From positions 1 through 64,000 of the IMG/VR virus record IMGVR_UViG_3300035696_000019: DNA of 64,000 bases; one strand, written 5' to 3'. Numbering within the stretch: position 1 is the first letter of the stretch; every line of letters begins with the position of its first letter. Source of the stretch: a virus. Below are positions 1 to 48,334 of the stretch, piece by piece. A model generated the notes under the pieces. The model was not told the DNA's origin and made no database searches. It saw nothing but the letters and a program-made list of their open reading frames with translations. Made by a program: the position numbers and the translations under genes.

Positions 1-700
1 ATCGAACGATGTCGCCGCGACTGAACTCCACATGAGCAATGTTCGGAATCCACAGCAGGCGTTGCAATGCGTCAGCCAGGCCAGACTGTCCGGGGATGTC
101 TTTTTGCGTCACATCGCCGTTGACCACCACGGTGCAATTCTCGCCAATGCGCGTCAGGAACATTTTCATCTGCGTCGGGGAGGTGTTCTGCGCCTCGTCC
201 AGCACCACGAAGGCGTTCTTGAAGGTGCTGCCGCGCATATAGGCCAGTGGGGCGGCGACGATGCGCTCTTCTTTGATCAGCAGCTTTACAAAACTCGCGC
301 CCAGGCGTTCATTGAGCACTTCGCGGAATGGCGCCAGATACGGGTCGAACTTTTCCTCTTTCTCACCCGGCAGGAAGCCGAGCTTTTCGCCTGCTTCCAC
401 GGCGGGTCGCGTGATCAGGATGCGGTCGATCTGCTTCGCTTTGAGCAAATCCGCTGCGTGCGCGGCTGCTACGTAGGTTTTCCCGGTGCCAGCCGGCCCG
501 GTTGCGAAGATGACCTTGTGCGACTTCATGGCATTCAGGTAGCGCGATTGCCCCGGTGTTTTGGCGCGCAATGGCGTGGTGTCAATCTTGTCGCGCAACG
601 GGAGAGTCTGCTCGTAATCGGAGGACGGATCACGATGTCGAAACTCGGATTCACGCGCGCGTTTGCCATTGCGGTTGCTGCGACCTTGGTATTTACCCAT
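1..700 (-). CDS. phoH: PhoH-family ATPase (3' end runs off the window)
   Basis: Not in the ORF track. Manual translation from ATG at 700: MGKYQGR...IFATGPAGTGKTY...ILITRPAVEAGEKLGFLPG...AYMRGSTF...LDEAQN...LTRIGEN...NGDVTQ, all PhoH signature motifs. Confidence 0.95.
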   Translation of the reverse strand, partial: MGKYQGRSNRNGKRARESEFRHRDPSSDYEQTLPLRDKIDTTPLRAKTPGQSRYLNAMKSHKVIFATGPAGTGKTYVAAAHAADLLKAKQIDRILITRPAVEAGEKLGFLPGEKEEKFDPYLAPFREVLNERLGASFVKLLIKEERIVAAPLAYMRGSTFKNAFVVLDEAQNTSPTQMKMFLTRIGENCTVVVNGDVTQKDIPGQSGLADALQRLLWIPNIAHVEFSRGDIVR

Positions 701-6350: not shown

Positions 6351-7721
6351 TTACGACACGGCGCCCTTCACATAGGAGGAGCTGTTGCCGTTGGTGCCGC
6401 CCCATGTCACGGTGTAACTGTTCAAAACGACCGCGTTGCCCGGAGAACCGCCAGGCCCGGCACTGTAGCCACCATTTCCGCTTCCAGACCCCGAGCCGCC
6501 AGCTACGCAAAGGTTGCTTGAGGCGCTACTGCCGGCACTACCGAGCGCGCCGCCATTACCGCCGTTGCCGCCATAGGCGCCATTTCCACTTTGCCCAGCG
6601 CTCCCGGAGGTTGCGCTTCCGTATCCCGCCCCCGCGCCCCCATTTCCGCCGGAGTAATAGGTATAGCTATGCGTTGTGATACAGTTATTGTGCGTGAGGA
6701 GGCCATTGGCGAAGAAGGTATGGGGGCCGTTTACGCGAAGTGTGTAGGTGCGAATTGCCCCCTCAATATACTCTACGGCAATGACCTTCACAGACTCTCC
6801 GCCTTGCGTCTGAATGGCACTCCCAATCACCAAGGGCACAACGGTGAGGTCGGGATAAGACGAGGCGGAGGCGTCGGGGTCGATGGATGTCCACGCTTGC
6901 GCTACGGGATCATAGAATGGGTGATCGTTCGTTGCGCCCGTGACCACGCCGTCACTCGTAGTGATGTTGTAATACCCGGCACGGAGTGGCTGAACCAGAT
7001 CCGTGACAACGACGACGCAATCGAGATGAGTCTCAAGGCTGTGAGCATAAATCGTTTCGCCAACTTCGATCGTCTCGATACGACGCTCGCCAAGCGGCGT
7101 CGAGACAAGAGTGCCCGCGATCAAACAACAATCGTTTGACTGGTTGTCATACCAGCCCTCTGCGCCACCACCACCACCGCCACCACCGCCACCAATGGTG
7201 CCATTGTTGATAATGGTCGTATTCATTCCCAGACCGATAGCGGGGCCGCCAGAGCCACCAGCGCCGCCAGAGCCGCCGCCACCAGCGCCACCAGCGCCGC
7301 CAGAACCACAACACCCCACCACTGTGCCATTGTTAGTGATACTGAATGACGACCCCGATGGGAGCGCGCATCCCGTCAGCGCCGCTGTGCCGGTCGAATT
7401 AGAGCCTAGCGTCACGCCGCTGTTGACCGTCAGCGTTGCCACAACGGGCTGTGTGCCATTCCACCCCGCTGCTGTAAGCGCGCTGGAAAGGTTGAATGGC
7501 GTGTTTGTGCTGGCACTGATTACGCCGTTATAAACGAAGTTCGACGACTTGCCGTAAAAGTTGGAAAGTGAAATAGGGCCAGATGCAACGCCGGCCAGAT
7601 TACGCACGGCCGCATCGTTCAATGAAATTTTTGCGCCTGCCGCATAGGTTCCCGGTGTGCTGGTATTAATTTCATTGGCGATGGTCTGGAGAGAGATTGG
7701 CCCGGAGGATGGAAGTGTCAT
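6351..7721 (-). CDS. glycine-rich gp38-like adhesin with inserted Hint domain
   Basis: N-terminal MTLPSSGPISL...ISLSNFYGKS, poly-Gly segments, position after an S74-bearing fibre; Hint domain CLIAGT..TNDHPF..FFANGLLTHN. Confidence 0.8.
   Translation of the reverse strand: MTLPSSGPISLQTIANEINTSTPGTYAAGAKISLNDAAVRNLAGVASGPISLSNFYGKSSNFVYNGVISASTNTPFNLSSALTAAGWNGTQPVVATLTVNSGVTLGSNSTGTAALTGCALPSGSSFSITNNGTVVGCCGSGGAGGAGGGGSGGAGGSGGPAIGLGMNTTIINNGTIGGGGGGGGGGAEGWYDNQSNDCCLIAGTLVSTPLGERRIETIEVGETIYAHSLETHLDCVVVVTDLVQPLRAGYYNITTSDGVVTGATNDHPFYDPVAQAWTSIDPDASASSYPDLTVVPLVIGSAIQTQGGESVKVIAVEYIEGAIRTYTLRVNGPHTFFANGLLTHNNCITTHSYTYYSGGNGGAGAGYGSATSGSAGQSGNGAYGGNGGNGGALGSAGSSASSNLCVAGGSGSGSGNGGYSAGPGGSPGNAVVLNSYTVTWGGTNGNSSSYVKGAVS
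6687..7127 (-). other. Hint domain (mini-intein or BIL-like, 147 aa, no endonuclease)
   Basis: Block A CLIAGTLV, block B TNDH (TxxH), block F/G TYTLRVNGPHTFFANGLLTHN. Confidence 0.88.
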
Positions 7722-39271: not shown

Positions 39272-40834
39272 ATGAGCAAAGAAATCATCACCATCGCCAG
39301 CAACGCCACATTGGGCAAGCTGCACAACTCCTCGCGCGAAGCAAAACTGGAGGCGCAGCGCATCCTGTCGTATGTGGTTGCCGGCGCCGAAATGAGCGAG
39401 TCGTTCAAGCGCGGCACCTGGGATGGTCGCAGTTCTTTCTTCGACTACCGCAGTGGCACGTTCCCGGCGGGCTTTGTGCATTTCCTGGCGCACGGTCTGC
39501 GTCGTGCCGGTTTCCAGACCAACTGTGTTGCGCGCCCCTTCCCCGAGCCAAAAGGTCAGAAGCGCGCCAAGGTCGATGCCTTCCCCGAAGACCCGCGTTA
39601 TGACTATCAACATCAGGTGGTAGAGAAACTACTGACGCACGGCAAGATCATCGCGCGCGTGGCAACAGGCGGCGGCAAATCAAGGATTGCCAAACTGGCC
39701 TTTGCCGCCATCCGTCGCCCGGCGCTGTTTCTCACCACGCGCTCCATTCTCATGTATCAGATGAAGGATGCGGTTGAGCGCGACATGGGCATCGAGGTCG
39801 CGGTGTTGGGCGATGGTCAGTTCGGCGTGGTCAAGACAGACGCCAATGGCGACGAACGTCGCTTCATCAAGATGTTCAACGTCGGCATGGTGCAGACGTT
39901 GGTATCGCGTCTGGCGCTCCCCTGCCCCGACGATTCGGTCGAAGTGCAGAATAAACAGATGGCAATTCGCAAGCAGACCATCGACCTACTTGGCAAGTTT
40001 GAACTGGTGATCGGCGAAGAGGCGCACGAAGCCTCCGGCAACAGCTATTACGAAATTCTGCAACATTGCACCAGCGCGCATTACCGCCTGGCTATGACCG
40101 CCACGCCATTCATGAAGGAGAACGAAGAGTCGAACATGCGCCTGATGGCCGCATTCGGCCCGATCGGCATCCATGTCAGCGAGCAGACGCTTATCGAGCG
40201 CGGCATTCTGGCAAAGCCCTATTTTAAGTATGTCGATCTAACCGAATGCCCGAAGCATCTGTCGCGCGGCACGGGTTGGCAGGCCGCTTACCGTCTCGGA
40301 ATCGTCACGCACGCACAGCGCAACCGCATCATTGTGGACGAAGTGAAGCGCGCCAGTCGCTACGGATTGTCGTCAATGGTATTGGTGCAGCAAACCAAAC
40401 ATGGCGATCTACTGCGCGACTTGATGACGGAAGCTGGTCTGCGCGTCGAGTTCATCCGTGGCGAAAATGATCAGAAAGGTCGCAAGGCGGCACTTGCGCG
40501 TCTGAGCAACGGCGAGATCGACGTGCTGATTGGCACCACAATTCTCGACGTGGGCGTGGATGTGCCGGCGGTGGGGTTGGTTATTCTGGCAGGCGGGGGC
40601 AAGGCAGAGATCGCTCTGCGTCAGCGGATTGGCCGGGGCTTGCGCGCCAAGAAGAATGGCCCGAACATGTGCTTCATTCTCGACTTCAGCGACGCTCAGA
40701 ACAGCTACCTGAAAGATCATGCCACGCAACGTCTGAATGTGGTGCGCAGCACGCCGGGGTTTGTCGAAGGGGTGTTGAGCGGCGCCGACTTTGATTATGA
40801 GGGACTTGGTTTCGAGAAATTGACTTCAAAATAA
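39272..40834 (+). CDS. superfamily 2 helicase
   Basis: ATGGGKS, GEEAH (DExH variant), TATP, DVGVDVP, QRIGRGLR. Confidence 0.93.
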   Translation: MSKEIITIASNATLGKLHNSSREAKLEAQRILSYVVAGAEMSESFKRGTWDGRSSFFDYRSGTFPAGFVHFLAHGLRRAGFQTNCVARPFPEPKGQKRAKVDAFPEDPRYDYQHQVVEKLLTHGKIIARVATGGGKSRIAKLAFAAIRRPALFLTTRSILMYQMKDAVERDMGIEVAVLGDGQFGVVKTDANGDERRFIKMFNVGMVQTLVSRLALPCPDDSVEVQNKQMAIRKQTIDLLGKFELVIGEEAHEASGNSYYEILQHCTSAHYRLAMTATPFMKENEESNMRLMAAFGPIGIHVSEQTLIERGILAKPYFKYVDLTECPKHLSRGTGWQAAYRLGIVTHAQRNRIIVDEVKRASRYGLSSMVLVQQTKHGDLLRDLMTEAGLRVEFIRGENDQKGRKAALARLSNGEIDVLIGTTILDVGVDVPAVGLVILAGGGKAEIALRQRIGRGLRAKKNGPNMCFILDFSDAQNSYLKDHATQRLNVVRSTPGFVEGVLSGADFDYEGLGFEKLTSK

Positions 40835-40879
40835 ATGCAGACTAATATTAAGCTATGAATAAATTTTGTGGAGATAAAC

Positions 40880-41149
40880 ATGGCAGGTAGACATTCTGTG
40901 GCGGCGTCTTCTGAAGTGTTGGAAATGCTCAAGGTATTGTGCGACCGCTACAACGTCAGCCAAATAGACGTGTTTGACGGGGTGTTCGACCAGATGGACG
41001 AGACGAAGCTGGAAGAGTTTTTGCAGCAACGTCGCTTGGCGAAGTCCGAACTGAAACAGCGATACCACGCGGTCAAACGTCAACTCAACAATCTCTCGCC
41101 CGAAGAGTTGGAGCGCACGCTGACTTTGCTGCAAGAGAAGCAGGCGTGA
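40880..41149 (+). CDS. small putative DNA-binding protein
   Basis: GGAG RBS before ATG 40880; RHH-like N-terminus. Confidence 0.6.
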   Translation: MAGRHSVAASSEVLEMLKVLCDRYNVSQIDVFDGVFDQMDETKLEEFLQQRRLAKSELKQRYHAVKRQLNNLSPEELERTLTLLQEKQA

Positions 41150-41403
41150 CACGCAGTCAGTTCGACGACTGGATTCGTTCGGTCGATGCGAATGCGGTGT
41201 CAGCCTGGGCGAAGTCGTTACAAGGCGAGGACGCTACCTACCGTTCGTTCCTCGCCTTTGTTTCGACACGGCTGGAGTATCCCGCCGGGTCGCCCGACGC
41301 CGAGTCAGATGACGAGGCGGAATGGATGACCCGCTTGAAGAACTGGTGGGAGACGGGCCGACCTGATCTGGATGCGCCAGCGACGGAAGCTGACGCCTGG
41401 TAG
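41146..41403 (+). CDS. hypothetical acidic protein
   Basis: Overlaps the upstream stop (GTGA). Confidence 0.55.
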   Translation: MTRSQFDDWIRSVDANAVSAWAKSLQGEDATYRSFLAFVSTRLEYPAGSPDAESDDEAEWMTRLKNWWETGRPDLDAPATEADAW

Positions 41404-41493
41404 TTCGAGGAGTAGTTGAGCAAATAAGCGATTACTCGTATTCTTTTCTCAATTCATCAGCCGGGCGAGTGACGGCCTGACAGGTCAGACGAC

Positions 41494-41526
41494 AAACGGG
41501 AGCCTTCGGGTTCCCGTTTTTGTTTT
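41494..41526 (+). terminator. rho-independent terminator of the helicase operon
   Basis: AAACGGGAGCC-ttcg-GGTTCCCGTTTTTGTTTT. Confidence 0.85.
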
Positions 41527-41549
41527 GAGGCTTGGAGCCTTGGGCTTCA

Positions 41550-41660
41550 GGGCTGAAAGGGTGATGTTTTGAGGATTTGGCTCCGGGGTGAAAGGGTGAT
41601 GTCTGGAAGGTCGAAGACAGTGGAGGGTGGGCCTCCTCTACATAAAAATTTTTCTAAGAC
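41550..41660. other. probable genome terminus / packaging initiation region
   Basis: Abrupt compositional switch at ~41640, convergent transcription, AAAAATTTTT tract and a TGAAAGGGTGATGT direct repeat. Inference. Confidence 0.4.
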
Positions 41661-41753
41661 ATGAGCTATTCAGCACGCACGCGCTACGGATACAAAAAAT
41701 CGACCACACATATATGCGCGGTCGATTAGTTTATATTCGCTCGCGATTATTAT

Positions 41754-42284
41754 TTATTCTATCGTGTAGATATATTCTATCGTCGGATATATCGACGTTT
41801 TATCATCGATGCATTGCATGATATCGTTCATGCATTGTGTAGTTATTATTCCGTCCTTATTCAGATTCTCTAAAGCGTCAAAAGCATAAGAGATATTCCG
41901 CTGTTTTTGATTGATCAAAGCAGTCATTTTTCGCGCTGTCGATTCTACGATCGACTGATACACAAGCGCGTAAAAGATAACCAGCGTCCTTTCACACACA
42001 GTCGCGTCATACGCGCGTTTCTTGCTCGCGAGCATATCAAGGTATTCCGATGCATACGCGCGCGCACCAGTCAGTGTTTCTGTAGTCGCTACGCGGTCGG
42101 AGATGTAACCGCTCGACTTTACTTTGACGTAGTAGCGTGACTCCTGCTCACTCCAAAAGATCCACGCTATATCATGCGCACTGGATACATGCGCGACGAT
42201 AGAATCAGACTTTGCGGTAAAGAAAATTTTGCGCGCTGCATTAGCAATCATTGCGAGACGTTGCGCTTTAGTCATGGTGCTCAT
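41754..42284 (-). CDS. early hypothetical protein
   Basis: 176-aa ORF with AAAGGA RBS; poor in Gly and Pro. Confidence 0.7.
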   Translation of the reverse strand: MSTMTKAQRLAMIANAARKIFFTAKSDSIVAHVSSAHDIAWIFWSEQESRYYVKVKSSGYISDRVATTETLTGARAYASEYLDMLASKKRAYDATVCERTLVIFYALVYQSIVESTARKMTALINQKQRNISYAFDALENLNKDGIITTQCMNDIMQCIDDKTSIYPTIEYIYTIE

Positions 42285-42308
42285 TTTAATATCCTTTCAG
42301 AATTAAAA

Positions 42309-42342
42309 ATTAGTGACTGAATAATATTATTCAGTCACTAAT
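42309..42342. repeat. perfect 34-bp palindrome
   Basis: ATTAGTGACTGAATAAT|ATTATTCAGTCACTAAT. Confidence 0.95.
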
Positions 42343-42348
42343 GAGTTA

Positions 42349-43131
42349 TTATTTAGATTGGAATAGTCGCGCTACTTCACGCGCGATGTCGGAGTCCAGC
42401 AAAGTGATACTGTCTTTTGCTGCACCTTTTTTGATGCTCGCAACACCGATAAAGGACAGCATCATGCGCGTGCTACTGCACTGAGTCGATGCTGTCGACT
42501 CGCTGCAGTTGTGCAGTCGCTTTATATCCAGCGTCTGATCCATCGCATCGTATGTGATGCTGCTGCAAATCGTCATGCGCGCGCTTTTATTATCGACATA
42601 GTTCAAACGAATCAGATTCGATATGATAGAGCGCGAATAACCATCAAAACCGGATTTAATACCACTCGCGATAGCAAAAATCGCTTTGCGGATTTTTTGC
42701 ACTGCGTAAATTGCAACAAAATCCGCGCTGGACTTGTCTGTGATGCTGATTTTTTGCGCAAGCGCAAGCAGGTCGACATCCAGATCAAGCATCTTCTTAA
42801 TCGCGAGCTTTGCAGCGCTTTTTTCAAAAGCTTTACGCTCTGTAATAAAGCTGTGCGTCTGATTCGCGCACGGTGCGTGATCCGCGCGAGCTTGAAGCGA
42901 CTCTATAAGAGCGGAATAAATCATGTCGATTTTGTTTTCGTTCTTTTTTGCTGCGAGTGTCGCAGCGCGCTTTGCTGCGATTTCCGCTTTTTGCGTATCG
43001 GTCAAAGCTACTTTTTTAGCAGTAGTCTTTTTGACGCTTTTCTTTTCAGCAGTAGCGGAAACAACCGCATCGATAACGGTATCAACTGCTGTATCCACTG
43101 CTGTATCCACTGCTACGGTTTGCTTTTCCAT
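42349..43131 (-). CDS. early hypothetical protein (Lys/Ala-rich N-terminus)
   Basis: GGAG RBS before MEKQTV; upstream TTGTAG..TGTATAGT promoter at ~43203-43231. Confidence 0.75.
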   Translation of the reverse strand: MEKQTVAVDTAVDTAVDTVIDAVVSATAEKKSVKKTTAKKVALTDTQKAEIAAKRAATLAAKKNENKIDMIYSALIESLQARADHAPCANQTHSFITERKAFEKSAAKLAIKKMLDLDVDLLALAQKISITDKSSADFVAIYAVQKIRKAIFAIASGIKSGFDGYSRSIISNLIRLNYVDNKSARMTICSSITYDAMDQTLDIKRLHNCSESTASTQCSSTRMMLSFIGVASIKKGAAKDSITLLDSDIAREVARLFQSK

Positions 43132-43489
43132 GATGCATATCTCCAGATAACGCGCAAAGGTGCGCACATCGATGCAGCGCGTTAGTGCGCTGTCGATGTA
43201 GTCACTATACACGCTTACTTTTCATCTACAAAAAATATGTAGCTGAAAACTTGACCTAGATCAATTTACAGAATGAGTTACAAATAACGCGCGGATTAAC
43301 AACAAACGAACTGGATACCTGAGCGAATTACTCGGAATCGCAGAGCAAAGTTGATTTATGTCAAACAAACGAACGGTGTCGGAGTGAAAACGCGGTCTAG
43401 CTACTTGACAACCGCTAAAAGCAGCTCAAAAACGCTGTTTTTCTTGATATAAGTCAACAAAATCGACCGGTTTGACCAATTTTTAAGCA

Positions 43490-43825
43490 GCCCTGGACGG
43501 TTGCGAGACGCAATGAAGCGGTTCCGACACTTTCCCTAGGGTTTCCGACGGTTTTCGGTATTTCTCCTACCCCTAGGGCACCTTCCCTAGCCCTTACCAG
43601 TCCTCGGGTGGCACCTAACCAGTCCTCGGGCGGCCCCTAGGCAACCACCCCAAGGCACAAAGGGAATCCCCAAGGCTCCAGGCATCAAGCCCGAGGTGTC
43701 ACCAGGCGTCGGGCGGCTCCTCACCAGGCAGGCAATGGCAACGCCTAGGCGTCAGGCAATAAAAAACCCTAGGTGTATCCTCGGGCGTGAGAAAGTGAAA
43801 GTCCCGAGAGTTGCCCGAGGAGATA
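43490..43825. repeat. CCTNGG-dense non-coding spacer
   Basis: About a dozen CCTAGG, CCTCGG/CCGAGG and CCAAGG sites in ~330 bp. Confidence 0.85.
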
Positions 43826-43860
43826 AATCCATAAACCGCACGGTGGCGGTTTCTGCTGCT

Positions 43861-44157
43861 TTAGAATTCATCCAAAGCATTTGCAATTAGCGTTTTGAAC
43901 ATAACGCGCGCTTGTCTGTAGTCGCGATTATTGAAAACGAACGCGGTGCGGAATGCGTCCTTTTCCATCAGCGCGCTATTTGCGTGAGAGATATTAGAAC
44001 AACCTTTTGCGTCAAAAATTGCAACAATGTGCGTGTATTCGTCCACGGTAGAAAAATCAAAGTGCTGACCAGCGATAACCGCGAACCGGTTACCCATGAT
44101 GGATTTAGCGGATTCCATCATCGCGGAATATTGCTCAAACGTCGTTATAACTCGCAT
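43861..44157 (-). CDS. early hypothetical protein
   Basis: Own promoter (44193-44221), AAAGG RBS and a downstream hairpin (~43833-43852). Confidence 0.75.
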   Translation of the reverse strand: MRVITTFEQYSAMMESAKSIMGNRFAVIAGQHFDFSTVDEYTHIVAIFDAKGCSNISHANSALMEKDAFRTAFVFNNRDYRQARVMFKTLIANALDEF

Positions 44158-44192
44158 GGTGCAGACCTTTCGTGTTTGGTTTCGATGAAATA

Positions 44193-44221
44193 ATTATCGC
44201 AACCGGATATTGGCACTTCAA
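44193..44221 (-). promoter_or_regulatory. sigma70-type early promoter
   Basis: TTGAAG-17 bp-GATAAT. Confidence 0.75.
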
Positions 44222-44426
44222 GAGAGTTAAACACGATTGGTTTGGGCGTTTTAAACCGTAGGTGTGGCCTAGCGATCCATAAGCACCGCCTAGGTGTTGT
44301 GGCCTAGGCATGGTCAGGCAGAGGATTGGCCTAGCGATCAATAGGCAGTGCCGAGGAATTGAGTGAGATTAATACCTAGGTGTTGTGGCCTGGAGATGGA
44401 TGGGCAGTGCCTAGGAGGATGCGAAG

Positions 44427-44523
44427 TAAACCGCACATAGGCGGTTTATCTGGCTACTCCAGATCACGCTCAGCAAGTCGTGCGCCCTCCAAATCATCCA
44501 CACCAAACACGGTGCGCGGTTCG
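44427..44523 (-). ncRNA. candidate small RNA or micropeptide transcript
   Basis: Promoter at 44530-44558 and hairpin at 44427-44448 with no convincing ORF between them. Confidence 0.35.
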
Positions 44524-44529
44524 CACATA

Positions 44530-44558
44530 ATTATCACAACCGGATATTGACGTTACAA
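44530..44558 (-). promoter_or_regulatory. sigma70-type early promoter
   Basis: TTGTAA-17 bp-GATAAT; spacer nearly identical to the 44193 promoter. Confidence 0.7.
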
Positions 44559-44653
44559 GCAATCAGCGTTGGGAGATTTGAACGAATTTTCGCTCGCCCG
44601 AGGAGAACCCGAGGAAGAATTAAAACAACCACTCATAGGAGTGGTCTGGTTGA

Positions 44654-45088
44654 TTACCATGGGAGAATGCAGTTTTCACCGTCGTCATCATCGAACTGGA
44701 TTTCATCCAGATCAGCGAAATAAACCGCGCGACCAAATTTTTCATGCATATGCAAGCGGTCATCATCAAAGCACAATTGCTCTACCGAGAGAATGATTGC
44801 ATCGTGTTGAATGTATTCCGCGCTGTAGTGCTTGCTTAAACACTCATTCAATTCCGCGTAGTCGGAACCCAACGCGAATTGTTCTTCAATCAGTTCTCCA
44901 GTCACGATGTTAATCGTGCGGTAAAACATGACATCGTTGAAGTAATCCGTTTCACCGTCGTCATTAGTCATGCTGACCACGCTGACCACGTATGACGCGC
45001 TGCGATTTCCAGCGTTGACGTAGCAACACTCAAACAGCGGTATAGATTTAAACTGACTGCTTGCACGGTCGATAGCGTTTTGTTCCAT
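44654..45088 (-). CDS. acidic early protein
   Basis: MEQNAIDR..., strongly Asp/Glu-rich; promoter at 45130-45158 and hairpin at ~44628-44645. Confidence 0.75.
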   Translation of the reverse strand: MEQNAIDRASSQFKSIPLFECCYVNAGNRSASYVVSVVSMTNDDGETDYFNDVMFYRTINIVTGELIEEQFALGSDYAELNECLSKHYSAEYIQHDAIILSVEQLCFDDDRLHMHEKFGRAVYFADLDEIQFDDDDGENCILPW

Positions 45089-45129
45089 GATGTTACCTTT
45101 CATTCGGTAGCGAGTTATCAGACGCATTT

Positions 45130-45158
45130 AGTATCCATGACCGGTATTGGCACTTCAA
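45130..45158 (-). promoter_or_regulatory. sigma70-type early promoter
   Basis: TTGAAG-17 bp-GATACT. Confidence 0.7.
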
Positions 45159-45529
45159 GCGATCTACTTGGGAGCTTTCTACTCAGGGAGCACCCATCGT
45201 CCGGTAGGATACCGTTTCCTCGGGCGCTGACGCCCCTAGGAGACGCCCAAACACTCTAGAGCTACCCAACCCTTCCCCTGCTAGCGAAAACGCCTAGGAA
45301 GCGCTCTGTGTGCCCGAGAACATTTCACCTATCCCTACGTCGCCTAGGTGTCGGTAGGCAACGCCAACACCCAACCAGGGATGCGCCGCACTCAACCAGA
45401 CCTCGGGCGGCTCCTATCCAGGCTTCGGGCGGCAGAGAAAACGCCTTGGGGTCAGAGTGTGTTGAAACGCCCGACGGTGCGCTGCGTCGGGTGAGGTGAG
45501 TGACCGCGCGATGACGCGGTCAAGATCGA

Positions 45530-45811
45530 TCAGTATTCGATTTCCAGCGTATCGGACATTTCCTCACCGTAACCAAAATAATTGTCCGTTTGATCGCGCA
45601 CCGTCGCGAGCAGCGCACTTGCTGCGTAAAGATCAACGGTGGTCATGGTGACTTTGATGTTGCGCTCGTTTTCACCATCGGTCTGAAAATCCAGGCGGAT
45701 GTCCGCGACCACACCGTCGTTATCGCGGATCAGTTGGGCACAAACATAGTTGTCGTAGTCCGGGTTAAATTCCGTGATCTTCACGGTTCCTTTGCGGGGG
45801 ATATGTGTCAT
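45530..45811 (-). CDS. acidic early protein
   Basis: GGAG RBS; promoter at 45846-45874 and hairpin at ~45501-45522. Confidence 0.75.
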   Translation of the reverse strand: MTHIPRKGTVKITEFNPDYDNYVCAQLIRDNDGVVADIRLDFQTDGENERNIKVTMTTVDLYAASALLATVRDQTDNYFGYGEEMSDTLEIEY

Positions 45812-46164
45812 GGTGGTTTACTCCGTGGTGGGTTTCGATACTCACAGTATCGCGCAGCGGAATAGGCTTAGAAAGCGAAAAACAGGCTGTTTGCGCAATT
45901 TTTCACTCATGCGCCCGCGAGGTGATGGGTTGAATATTGCTCGCAAAGTGCATTTATTGGCATTTTCCACCGCGCTCAACTGTGACACTCGGCAGGGTGT
46001 CACATAGAGGAGAAATGCACCCCTCGGGTGTCAATCGTGGTCTGAGATGGGTCAGGCAGCGCCTCGGGCTGGCCTGGAGTGGAATAGGTAGTGAGTGCGC
46101 TATGGCGTGGCCTAGGTGCAGAGAGGCAGCAGAACAACCGGACTGATGACCGGTCGGGTGTTGG

Positions 46165-46359
46165 TTACGGCATACAGGGATCAACCCTGGCATCGGAAAC
46201 CCAACCGAGTTGCATGGCGTGTTGCTCGGACTTTGGCAGTGCGTCGAACTGGGCGCGCGTCATGTCATTGCATTCGATGATGGCTTCGATCAGGTCGTCG
46301 TCGCCCAGACGACGGTTGAACTCGGCGTCGATCACATCTCCGTCACGGTAGGTTTCCAT
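46165..46359 (-). CDS. small acidic early protein
   Basis: GGAG RBS; promoter at 46392-46420. Confidence 0.7.
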   Translation of the reverse strand: METYRDGDVIDAEFNRRLGDDDLIEAIIECNDMTRAQFDALPKSEQHAMQLGWVSDARVDPCMP

Positions 46360-47280
46360 GATTTTATGCTCCGGTCGGTTGGTATGAGCACAGCATGACC
46401 ACGCAGTATTGGCATGAAAACACGTTTTAGAGGGATTTCGCGCAATCTTTCATTGTCGTTTTCGAGGGTGTAGGGGCATAAAATGCTAAAACGGCGGATT
46501 TTGAGCGGCAAGGGTGTCCCATGCCGAGGGGTTCGGCTGATGGCAGGGTTTCCCGATTCCGTGGTATCTCTGTGGCCGAGGGCTTTCGACTCCCGCCAGT
46601 AGACGGTAGGCACCAGGTGAGCGCCGCAGGCGCGAGCCGGTGCCGTTCTACTCCCGAGGATATCACCAGGCCGAGGGCTTTCCCTCTCCGCTACCTAGGA
46701 TCAGTCCTACCACTCCCTAGGGGTCAATCCCTCTGCCAACCATGCGCCTTCGGCGCCAACTGGCACTGGGAACACCCTTTCCAGTCTATAGTTGGCAGGG
46801 AATTTTTATACCGTGGATGAATTTTTCCCTCGCGCGCGCGCATTTAGAAAAAACCGACGAAGCGAGAGGAGGAGCCGGATGACGACGAGCGAAGCGAGGA
46901 GGAAGAAGGCTCCGTAGCGAAGCGAAGGAGGTTTTTTCCAGAGAGGAAGTAAATCAAGAGAGTCGAAACTCAGAAACAAGCCCCCCTCCCCCAAACGCTC
47001 TATGAAACTGAGCACCAGTAACGACTTGCTTGTCACTAGCGGGAGAGGGAAACCGTTTCAAGGCGTTGAGCTTAGTCGTGTCGATGGCGAAACAACAGAG
47101 CGAACCCAGAAACAAGCCCCCAGAAGAAAGAGTAAAGCGAGAGAACAAATCGCTCAACATCCCGAGACGGATAGTAAGTCACGGGTGATTTATCTGTCAA
47201 GTGGAGTAGGTGAGACCAATGCAGGTCGGTGAGAGGGGTAGATGGCGACAATGAGTGGAATACCGCCGCCCGCCAGTCAC

Positions 47281-47340
47281 CCCACTGTTGACCCACTGTT
47301 GACCCACTGTTGACCCACTGTTGACCCACTGTTGACCCAC
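47281..47340 (+). repeat. 11-bp tandem repeat (CCCACTGTTGA) x5 plus partial copy
   Basis: Seen directly; an extra copy lies at ~47403. Confidence 0.95.
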
Positions 47341-48334
47341 CAGTTACTCCTCTATAGCCGCCAGCAACTCTCGCTTCACTCCCACCACCACCACACTATG
47401 AACCCACTGTTGATTCACTGTCGCTCTCACCATTGCCCCCACTATCCCGCTATTCCATCTCTCGTCATTCCCCACTCTTCTCCCGATCGTTCTCTTTCTC
47501 TCCGGTATCTTATGGTCTGGTCATGCATACTCACTGGCCTGGAGATAGACAACCAGTTTGGCCTTGTAATGTTCGGGCAGCGTTTGTGCGTTCCCTGATG
47601 TGTGATTGGATCAGATGTTGATCTGGATGGTTTGGCGCGCTGTTATGGATTGCTACGTCTTGGGAATGGATATCTGGATTGGTCGGTTCGGGTAGTCTTT
47701 TCGCTTACGGTTTGTGATTGCCCGAGGCGGTTTCATTTGATCGAGGAAGGGGTTCGGGAGCCGCTATTGTGTTTGATTACGAGAGAAGTTCTCGGGAACC
47801 GGTGTTGGAGGATTTCCCGTTCCATTCATTTGACTTTTCCATTGATTTCCCCTTGTTTTGTCTTTGTGGGGTTTCATGGGGAGTCAGCCGTATGTTTAAT
47901 CATGAATTGTTTTGTTTTATATTTAATATTTATATATACGGTGGGAAGAGGTATGGGGAGTCGTCGGCTCCCAGTGTTCGCGGTTTTGGCGAAACGCTTG
48001 TAATCGCGTTGTGCGCGCTTGTTTTATGCTCTGGTATATCTCGGTATACCAGCGATTCGGGGAACGCTTCTATGGTTGTTTCTGTGGTCGGAATCGCTAT
48101 ATCACTTGCATCTATGGTCTGGATAGACTCAGATTGCGGATTGTGACTCGGGTGTCAATTTGTTTCATTGCCAAATTCCCCTTTAGAATCATAGGCTTAT
48201 AACGCTTATTGCGTTAATCCTCGGCGTCGAATTGAGAAAAACGCCTGAAAATGCAAAAAGTGTCATTTGCACACAAGCCCGAGGGGTGATTCAGCAATTG
48301 GAAAAGGCGACCGGGAGTTCCGATCGCCTTTACT

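Follow-up and report, generated by a model that had tools for sequence, protein, structure and literature searches.

The viral contig IMGVR_UViG_3300035696_000019 of IMG/VR contains an expression unit of nearly two kilobases from which a whole class of trinucleotides is missing. The four words GGC, GGG, GCC and CCC, collectively referred to here as GGS/SCC, occur 4,620 times (72 per kb) in the window, which is the first 64 kb of this 105,923-bp contig (G+C content 57%). Between positions 41632 and 43489, a segment that we call the island, there is not one of them. The flanking sites start at 41631 and 43490, leaving a gap of 1,859 bp, and the second-longest gap anywhere in the genome measures 281 bp (44868–45149) and lies close by. 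Carried on the minus strand of the island are two genes, one for a protein of 260 residues (gene X) and one for an orphan of 176 residues, with predicted promoters and terminators. The ban on these words is selected and conserved across relatives. Purifying selection keeps the unit free of GG·CC, here only where the next base is G or C, and the ban has been strong enough to alter which codons are used, the junctions between them, the non-coding DNA and the amino-acid content of the proteins.

At the genome frequency, about 136 GGS/SCC sites would be expected in the island (Poisson log10 P of about −59); the base composition of the island predicts 78, and a first-order Markov model 32. A preliminary description of this DNA had placed the word-free segment at about 41640–43489 and had remarked that GG is followed there by A or T only, and both statements are borne out by the counts: on the two strands together, the base after GG is A 37 times and T 29 times, and never G or C. 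The island holds 67 GG/CC dinucleotides against 239 expected, and CG (152 versus 182 expected) and GC (159 versus 183) are near the genome level. Because GG/CC alone is lost, the low G+C content of the island (0.44 versus 0.57) results from the purge and did not give rise to it. The ban within GG/CC extends here over exactly three letters, with GGC/GCC and GGG/CCC at zero, GGA/TCC at 0.80 of the genome frequency and GGT/ACC at 0.51. The abundance of GCGC and CGCG, pointed out in the same description, is equally real (33 and 34 occurrences against 4.2 expected from composition, eight-fold above).

The words are under-represented against codon-aware nulls as well, which is the mark of avoided restriction sites and protospacer-adjacent motifs (PAMs). 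When the synonymous codons of each open reading frame (ORF) were shuffled within that ORF in 2,000 trials, the control that the preliminary description had called for, the 260-residue ORF carried a mean of 13.5 sites (minimum 5) and the 176-residue ORF a mean of 6.7 (minimum 1); zero was reached by neither ORF in any of the 2,000 trials. Recoding with genome codon usage, used as a second control, gave 41.7 and 21.7 sites, respectively. Both proteins are poor in glycine and proline, as had been noticed earlier: Gly accounts for 5 of 260 and 3 of 176 residues, versus 7.9% genome-wide, and Pro for 1 of 260 and 1 of 176, versus 3.9%. The 544 bp of non-coding DNA within the island likewise lack GGS/SCC. 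The ban acts on DNA, on both strands, and because it is symmetric and spans non-coding DNA, a reader of a duplex DNA step is called for. An assembly artefact or chimaera is ruled out by identical contigs in two peat-metagenome runs, one of which spans the right boundary.

The left boundary is as sharp as first described, the preceding 172 bp carrying 128 GGS per kb. On the right, the fading reported in the preliminary description holds for gene bodies, in which the density is 3.4 per kb in the ORF at 43861–44157, 4.6 at 44654–45088 and 25 at 45530–45811, and normal further on; it does not hold for the spacers separating these right-hand early genes, which are enriched instead (54–127 per kb versus 73 per kb). 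In the spacers that abut or separate purged units, the banned words are enriched 1.7-fold. As purged gene bodies alternate with word-enriched spacers, the purge tracks expression units and not one contiguous block. The proposal that a short target class had been purged from a genome end is therefore retained in part: the purge is at the level of DNA, is selected and lies in a cassette with predicted host-type early promoters, and it is not contiguous. These data are most simply read as the avoidance of a short target.

The ban extends to relatives of X, as the preliminary description had required of related genomes. The comparison set comprised 15 viral contigs encoding an X relative, with loci of 5–20 kb. 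In 12 of the 15 the X homologue occupies the same position and carries the longest GGS-free run of the locus, and two related loci have zero GGS sites across 978 and 943 bp. In the pooled X-relative genes, all trinucleotides containing GG or CC, with the exception of GGT/ACC, are at 0.24–0.48 of background. Among 11 X homologues, GGT accounts for 82% of the Gly codons, versus 21% in background genes, and GCC for only 5% of the Ala codons, versus 40%, and the proteins contain 1.9% Gly (versus 8.1%), 0.6% Pro (versus 4.2%) and about 0% Trp. Across 150 representatives of the X family the median content of Gly, Pro and Trp combined is 4.7%, compared with about 13% in background genes; eight have none of the three. 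The banned set varies by lineage, being GGS in this phage, GGV in four of the metagenomic loci (L005, L008, L009 and L011) and all GG/CC in Nickievirus.

Three cultured Nickievirus phages of Pseudomonas syringae, nickie, Nican01 and phiK7B1, are depleted in the same manner. Positions 96376–97459 of Nican01 (1,083 bp) are without any GG or CC, in a genome with an average of one per 8 bp and a runner-up gap of 164 bp. Running from tandem sigma-70-like promoters to a terminator, this island carries the genes of two proteins in which Gly, Pro and Trp are absent, and its ribosome-binding sites likewise lack GG. At the syntenic place, the GG/CC-free stretch is 1,115 bp long in phiK7B1 and 1,137 bp in nickie. 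Nican01 and nickie differ in the island region by 267 substitutions (22% DNA divergence), and nickie has 4 GG/CC there; 267 random substitutions would instead introduce a mean of 67 (minimum 43). This comparison is direct evidence of ongoing purifying selection. The temperate relative SSU5 has no island (longest GGS-free run, 237 bp; longest GG/CC-free run, 154 bp).

Some factor in the infected cell probably reads the short word. The explanation that we favour, and to which we would give an even chance, is immunity by absence, in which the unit stays transcribable while a GG·CC-reading factor acts early in infection. This factor would read the word on double-stranded DNA and cut, block or mark the DNA there; X and, less strictly, the next two early cassettes would be transcribed during its activity, and the need for expression during the attack would have led to these units being written without the word. 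The reader might be a nuclease or defence system of the host, or else a function of the phage that is aimed at host DNA. That such a reader exists, what it is and that it acts early are inferences. As a hit seems to count inside the unit and not in the adjoining spacers, immunity by absence at the level of the expression unit is favoured. The ban has been held over deep divergence in proteins nearly without Gly, Pro and Trp, and its cost and depth of conservation imply that a factor reading a very short word would be vital in the first minutes of infection. Its identification could uncover a new defence or host-takeover activity and could bear on how pre-early phage DNA persists during the destruction of host DNA. 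Owing to the presence of the strictest form in three cultured P. syringae phages, the question is accessible at the bench.

Several points weigh against immunity by absence. We know of no nuclease, PAM or modification enzyme that targets exactly GGS, GGV or GG. The spacers directly flanking the unit are word-enriched, so cutting at every site would kill the phage unless something shields the spacers, a hit does no more than block transcription, or this copy of the DNA is expendable. The 'early' timing is suggested by promoter-like sequences and gene arrangement. The two Nickievirus proteins Nican01_00136 and Nican01_00137 show no homology to X or to the orphan in BLASTP and hhalign comparisons or with a 116-member profile, and the equivalence of the Nickievirus and X islands is suggested by position and a common downstream repeat array only.

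A broader and more tentative proposal, which we think unlikely as it stands, is that these phages sort self from non-self by composition and not by base modification: a pre-early phage function, or an exploited host system, would attack or silence any duplex DNA containing GG·CC, and only word-free units would be expressed. Host chromosomal DNA would be among the targets, perhaps together with an expendable copy of the phage's terminal repeat, and the banned set (GGS, GGV or GGN) would co-evolve with the reader. If true, this would be a concrete case of a mechanism that has been proposed, and never shown, for the escape of T5 pre-early DNA from the phage's own nuclease.

The first-injected end envisaged in the preliminary description is plausible, and we hold it to be a minority possibility. 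The island would be a contiguous leading end of the genome, lying in a long terminal repeat and purged of restriction sites or PAMs because it is exposed before anti-defence proteins appear. Such an end would suit the conserved, genome-unique repeat array that abuts the island, like a possible terminus or packaging signal, the weakening of gene-body depletion with distance, and the direction of the genes, which point to the presumed end as do dmp, A1 and A2 in the left terminal repeat of T5. It would also suit the word banned in Nickievirus, a bare CC/GG dinucleotide that is PAM-sized and not restriction-site-sized, and the observation that CRISPR targeting of T5 is possible in pre-early DNA only. 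Nican01 is moreover placed in the class 'DTR (long)' by PhageTerm, without coordinates (PMC11256456, Table 2). However, word-rich spacers lie between the purged genes and directly on either side of the island, and contiguous leading DNA would still be cut or targeted in them; the island, moreover, measures just 1.2–1.9 kb. A CC PAM is not avoided here, given the GGA/TCC and GGT/ACC frequencies above, and the type I-F and Cas9 PAMs that had been put forward as the target are thereby set aside for this genome. No terminus was mapped: contigs from the two peat-metagenome runs, the only public runs with this sequence (depth 2–6), showed no starts, ends or depth step, and among phage records in public data none contains the Nickievirus island twice.

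Improbable, in our estimate, is a constraint at the level of RNA, whereby the transcript would have to lack GG/CC owing to an endoribonuclease, GGA-binding Rsm/Csr proteins, Rho loading or secondary structure. The purged zone does coincide with a promoter-to-terminator unit both here and in Nican01, with the edges of the ban near promoters and terminators (all predicted elements), and the unpurged spacers and the GG-free ribosome-binding sites of Nican01 would fit such a constraint. A symmetric ban would nonetheless need two unrelated RNA words to be equally banned, whereas one duplex DNA step covers both. The site-free DNA also extends some 280 bp beyond the best promoter on its upstream side, although further upstream promoters are possible, and the abundance of GCGC and CGCG shows that strong RNA helices are not avoided.

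Self-modification of a known type is unsupported, and we assign it a low probability. The phage would modify GG-type motifs of its own DNA, for example with 7-deazaguanine via DpdA, and the early unit would be motif-free in order to stay unmodified and readable. Lineage-specific banned sets would fit differing enzyme specificity, and a modification that blocks only transcription would account for the unpurged spacers. Searches of the 98%-complete genome with PF01702, PF06508, PF01242 and PF01227 for TGT/DpdA and the preQ0 pathway (QueC, QueD (PTPS) and FolE) gave no match, and control genomes responded; PF00145 and PF01555, for C5 and N6/N4 methyltransferases, also had no match there, the D12/Dam-class families not being part of the search. 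No such enzyme is annotated in Nican01. The suggestion that the banned word is the phage's own modification motif thus loses its enzyme among the families searched, although the hypothetical proteins could include a modification system of another kind. In phage CAjan, DpdA reportedly directs 7-deazaguanine modification to GA and GGC. The ban shares with this system a short guanine-centred motif that includes GGC and a lineage-dependent specificity, and differs from it in that this genome has no DpdA/TGT or preQ0-pathway gene of the families searched.

Largely refuted, and left with hardly any probability, is a compositional by-product (an imported low-GC cassette, the target of an AT-seeking silencer, or a local mutational bias), for which the low G+C content, the orphan second gene and the imperfect inverted repeats flanking the island could be cited, as low-GC import and mutational bias are excluded by a loss confined to GG/CC with CG and GC near genome level, by own-codon shuffles that never reach zero, and by a ban that survives 22% DNA divergence in Nickievirus and about 45% protein identity between syntenic orthologues, and as Nican01 has no flanking inverted repeats.

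Among known systems, T5 provides an analogy and not a homology. The pre-early DNA of T5 is the sole part of its genome vulnerable to CRISPR and EcoRI (PMC5389539; 10.1101/866236), and how this DNA escapes the degradation driven by the phage's own A1 is an open question (10.64898/2026.04.02.716235). Common to the T5 pre-early region and the region described here are small early genes with host-type promoters, transcription toward a presumed end and large, untranslated repeat regions in between; the present genome has small genes, predicted sigma-70-like promoters, terminators and repeat-rich spacers. T5 pre-early (first-step-transfer) DNA must outlast host nucleases and T5's own degradation of host DNA, as the island may have to, and the 'DTR (long)' class of a Nickievirus relative is a further likeness (PMC11256456). 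Unlike the island, the first-step-transfer DNA of T5 is under no GG/CC ban (no run free of GG/CC exceeds 80 bp), and the purge here covers 1.2–1.9 kb only and tracks single expression units. T5 dmp, A1 and A2 gave no tblastn match at E ≤ 1 in this genome or in Nican01. Davison is said to have proposed that A1 nuclease sites are absent from T5 pre-early DNA.

Restriction-site avoidance and PAM depletion in phages (Kupczok and Bollback 2014; PMC4246573) resemble the ban in being a selected under-representation of short DNA words, shown by codon-aware nulls. The known cases are statistical, genome-wide and mild, and concern sites of 4–6 bp or defined PAMs, whereas here a word of 2–3 nt is totally lost, from one expression unit only, at the cost of Gly, Pro and Trp. 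To our knowledge, GGS matches no known PAM or restriction site. The host-takeover modules in the long terminal repeats of SPO1-like phages and Kayvirus consist of small early genes in arrays, with a strong host-type promoter and a terminator for every gene, and in this respect the cassettes described here are similar; we know of no report of a di- or trinucleotide ban in these modules. In the literature searched, no description of such a word ban was found.

Gene X has 17 homologues at 40–50% identity, and its family forms 190 clusters in a 50%-identity representative library. It has no Pfam match at E ≤ 0.01, and its sole family matches are PHROGs 4202 and 9272, both without an assigned function. 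The AlphaFold2 model (pLDDT of 84.8) comprises a helical N-terminal part and a C-terminal winged helix, in which helices 196–207 and 211–228 and strands 231–234 and 241–244 form a helix-turn-helix followed by a β-hairpin wing. The invariant motif HNCSESTASTQxSSTRMML corresponds in the model to the turn and recognition helix. Residues ~145–260 align over about 80 residues with winged helices of MarR, ArsR, PadR, TubR and others (VIA-align Z-scores of 7.2–8.9). The winged helix is a common fold, and X is probably a DNA-binding early protein, judging from the model. Searches with X returned no significant match among solved structures (Foldseek; best E-value of 0.038) and unnamed clusters only in the ESM Atlas; PADLOC has no match for X or the orphan gene, and neither megablast of the region nor tblastn of X found a match in 50,697 phage records. 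That X itself reads the word was considered and set aside: its recognition helix is invariant though the banned sets differ between loci (GGS versus GGV), which speaks weakly against it. At the N terminus of X (43000–43131) is a VDTA-VDTA-VDT peptide repeat arising from direct DNA repeats (ACTGCTGTATCC), and this extension is not present in any of the 17 homologues. The 176-residue orphan has no homologue among 5.8 billion clustered proteins and no Pfam or PHROGs match, and its single-sequence structure model is unusable (pLDDT of 47).

Table 1. Features of the island and its surroundings. Promoters, terminators and hairpins are predicted; positions are those of the window.
Feature	Position	Strand	Remarks
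GGS/SCC-free island, putative early expression unit (promoters, two genes, terminators)	41632–43489	−	from word counts
Sigma-70-like promoter of gene X	43204–43231	−	TTGTAG, 16-nt spacer, TATAGT; read from sequence, predicted
Extra −35-like boxes TTGACT and TTGACA upstream of gene X	~43453–43458 and ~43359–43364		read from sequence
Gene X, 260 residues	42349–43131	−	ATG at 43131 preceded by GGAGAT; in-frame GTG upstream at 43212
Perfect palindrome, bidirectional terminator-like hairpin between X and the orphan gene	42309–42342	.	15-bp stem
Orphan gene, 176 residues	41754–42284	−	AAGGAT before ATG; terminator-like hairpin past stop
Intrinsic terminator-like hairpin and T-run downstream of the 176-residue gene	41698–41727	−	
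Two 26-nt direct repeats, core TGAAAGGGTGATG	41547–41607	+	35 bp apart; abut the island's downstream edge
Upstream spacer	43490–43860	.	127 GGS per kb; five CCTAGG sites; ACCAGTCCTCGGGYGGC repeats
Neighbouring early cassette, 98-residue ORF	43861–44222	−	one GGS site; repeated promoter CTTGAAG...GATAAT
Neighbouring early cassette, ~144-residue ORF	44654–45159	−	two GGS sites; third copy of the repeated promoter
DEAD-box/ResIII helicase, convergent	39272–40834	+	synteny anchor in metagenomic relatives

The genome as a whole is that of a soil siphophage (about 106 kb) related to SSU5, Nickievirus and the RHEph10 group, with a portal protein 52–56% identical to theirs and PHROGs matches to tail and portal proteins. 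The contig ends (window 1–150 and genome 105770–105923) share about 150 bp, with two mismatches, in a record that IMG/VR classes as linear; this overlap is in keeping with circular assembly of the genome or with collapse of a terminal repeat. In the metagenomic relatives, the X homologues lie 1.0–3.3 kb from the convergent DEAD-box helicase (Table 1). The small minus-strand cassettes to the right of the island share a promoter that is repeated three times (consensus matches only). Of the 18 copies of CCTAGG in the genome, 15 are concentrated in non-coding spacers that separate the early cassettes (43490–46730), and 7-mers containing this word, of the CCTAGGAGAC type, are 34–66-fold enriched upstream of X in 7–8 of 11 related loci; from their distribution, these words are probably operator arrays for some protein. 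An Rfam search of positions 40500–47500 found no known RNA family. Imperfect inverted repeats (75–90% complementary) flank the island at 41499–41544 and 43648–43688; the idea of a mobile cassette with inverted repeats at its ends was rejected, the Nican01 island being without such flanking repeats.

Just past the island, on the strand opposite to the genes, is a tandem array conserved in this genome, the metagenomic relatives and Nican01. Its core TGAAAGGGTGATG is present here in two copies (41554 and 41589), with no other copy in the genome. The metagenomic relatives carry GTATAAGGAT in 2–5 copies about 34 bp apart, 150–900 bp downstream of X, and overlapping promoter-like sites of the form TTGAAT-N16/17-TATAAG can also be read within each of these units. 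In Nican01 the unit is GTGTAAGGG, in three copies (7536–7648 of its locus, L016), and a looser pattern matches once elsewhere in that genome. By its arrangement, the array could be a terminus or packaging signal, a set of origin iterons or an operator.

Alternating purine–pyrimidine GC-rich runs of at least 10 nt are 5–6-fold enriched in the island and in Nican01 96241–97499, and runs of at least 12 nt, such as ATGCATACGCGCGCGCAC at 42050, are enriched over 10-fold; these runs are Z-DNA-prone. Z-DNA was rejected as the cause of the ban, as alternating runs arise automatically when GG/CC is banned while G+C is kept, and they are probably a by-product. A second dip in G+C content (0.48), at contig positions 90000–92000 outside the window, is mildly depleted in GGS, its gaps measuring 138, 124 and 110 bp. 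Upstream of the Nickievirus island (L016 6125–6400, corresponding to Nican01 96124–96399) are three tandem promoter-like sites of the CTTGCA...TAGAAT type, which overlap predicted palindromic GCTTGC/GCAAGC operators.

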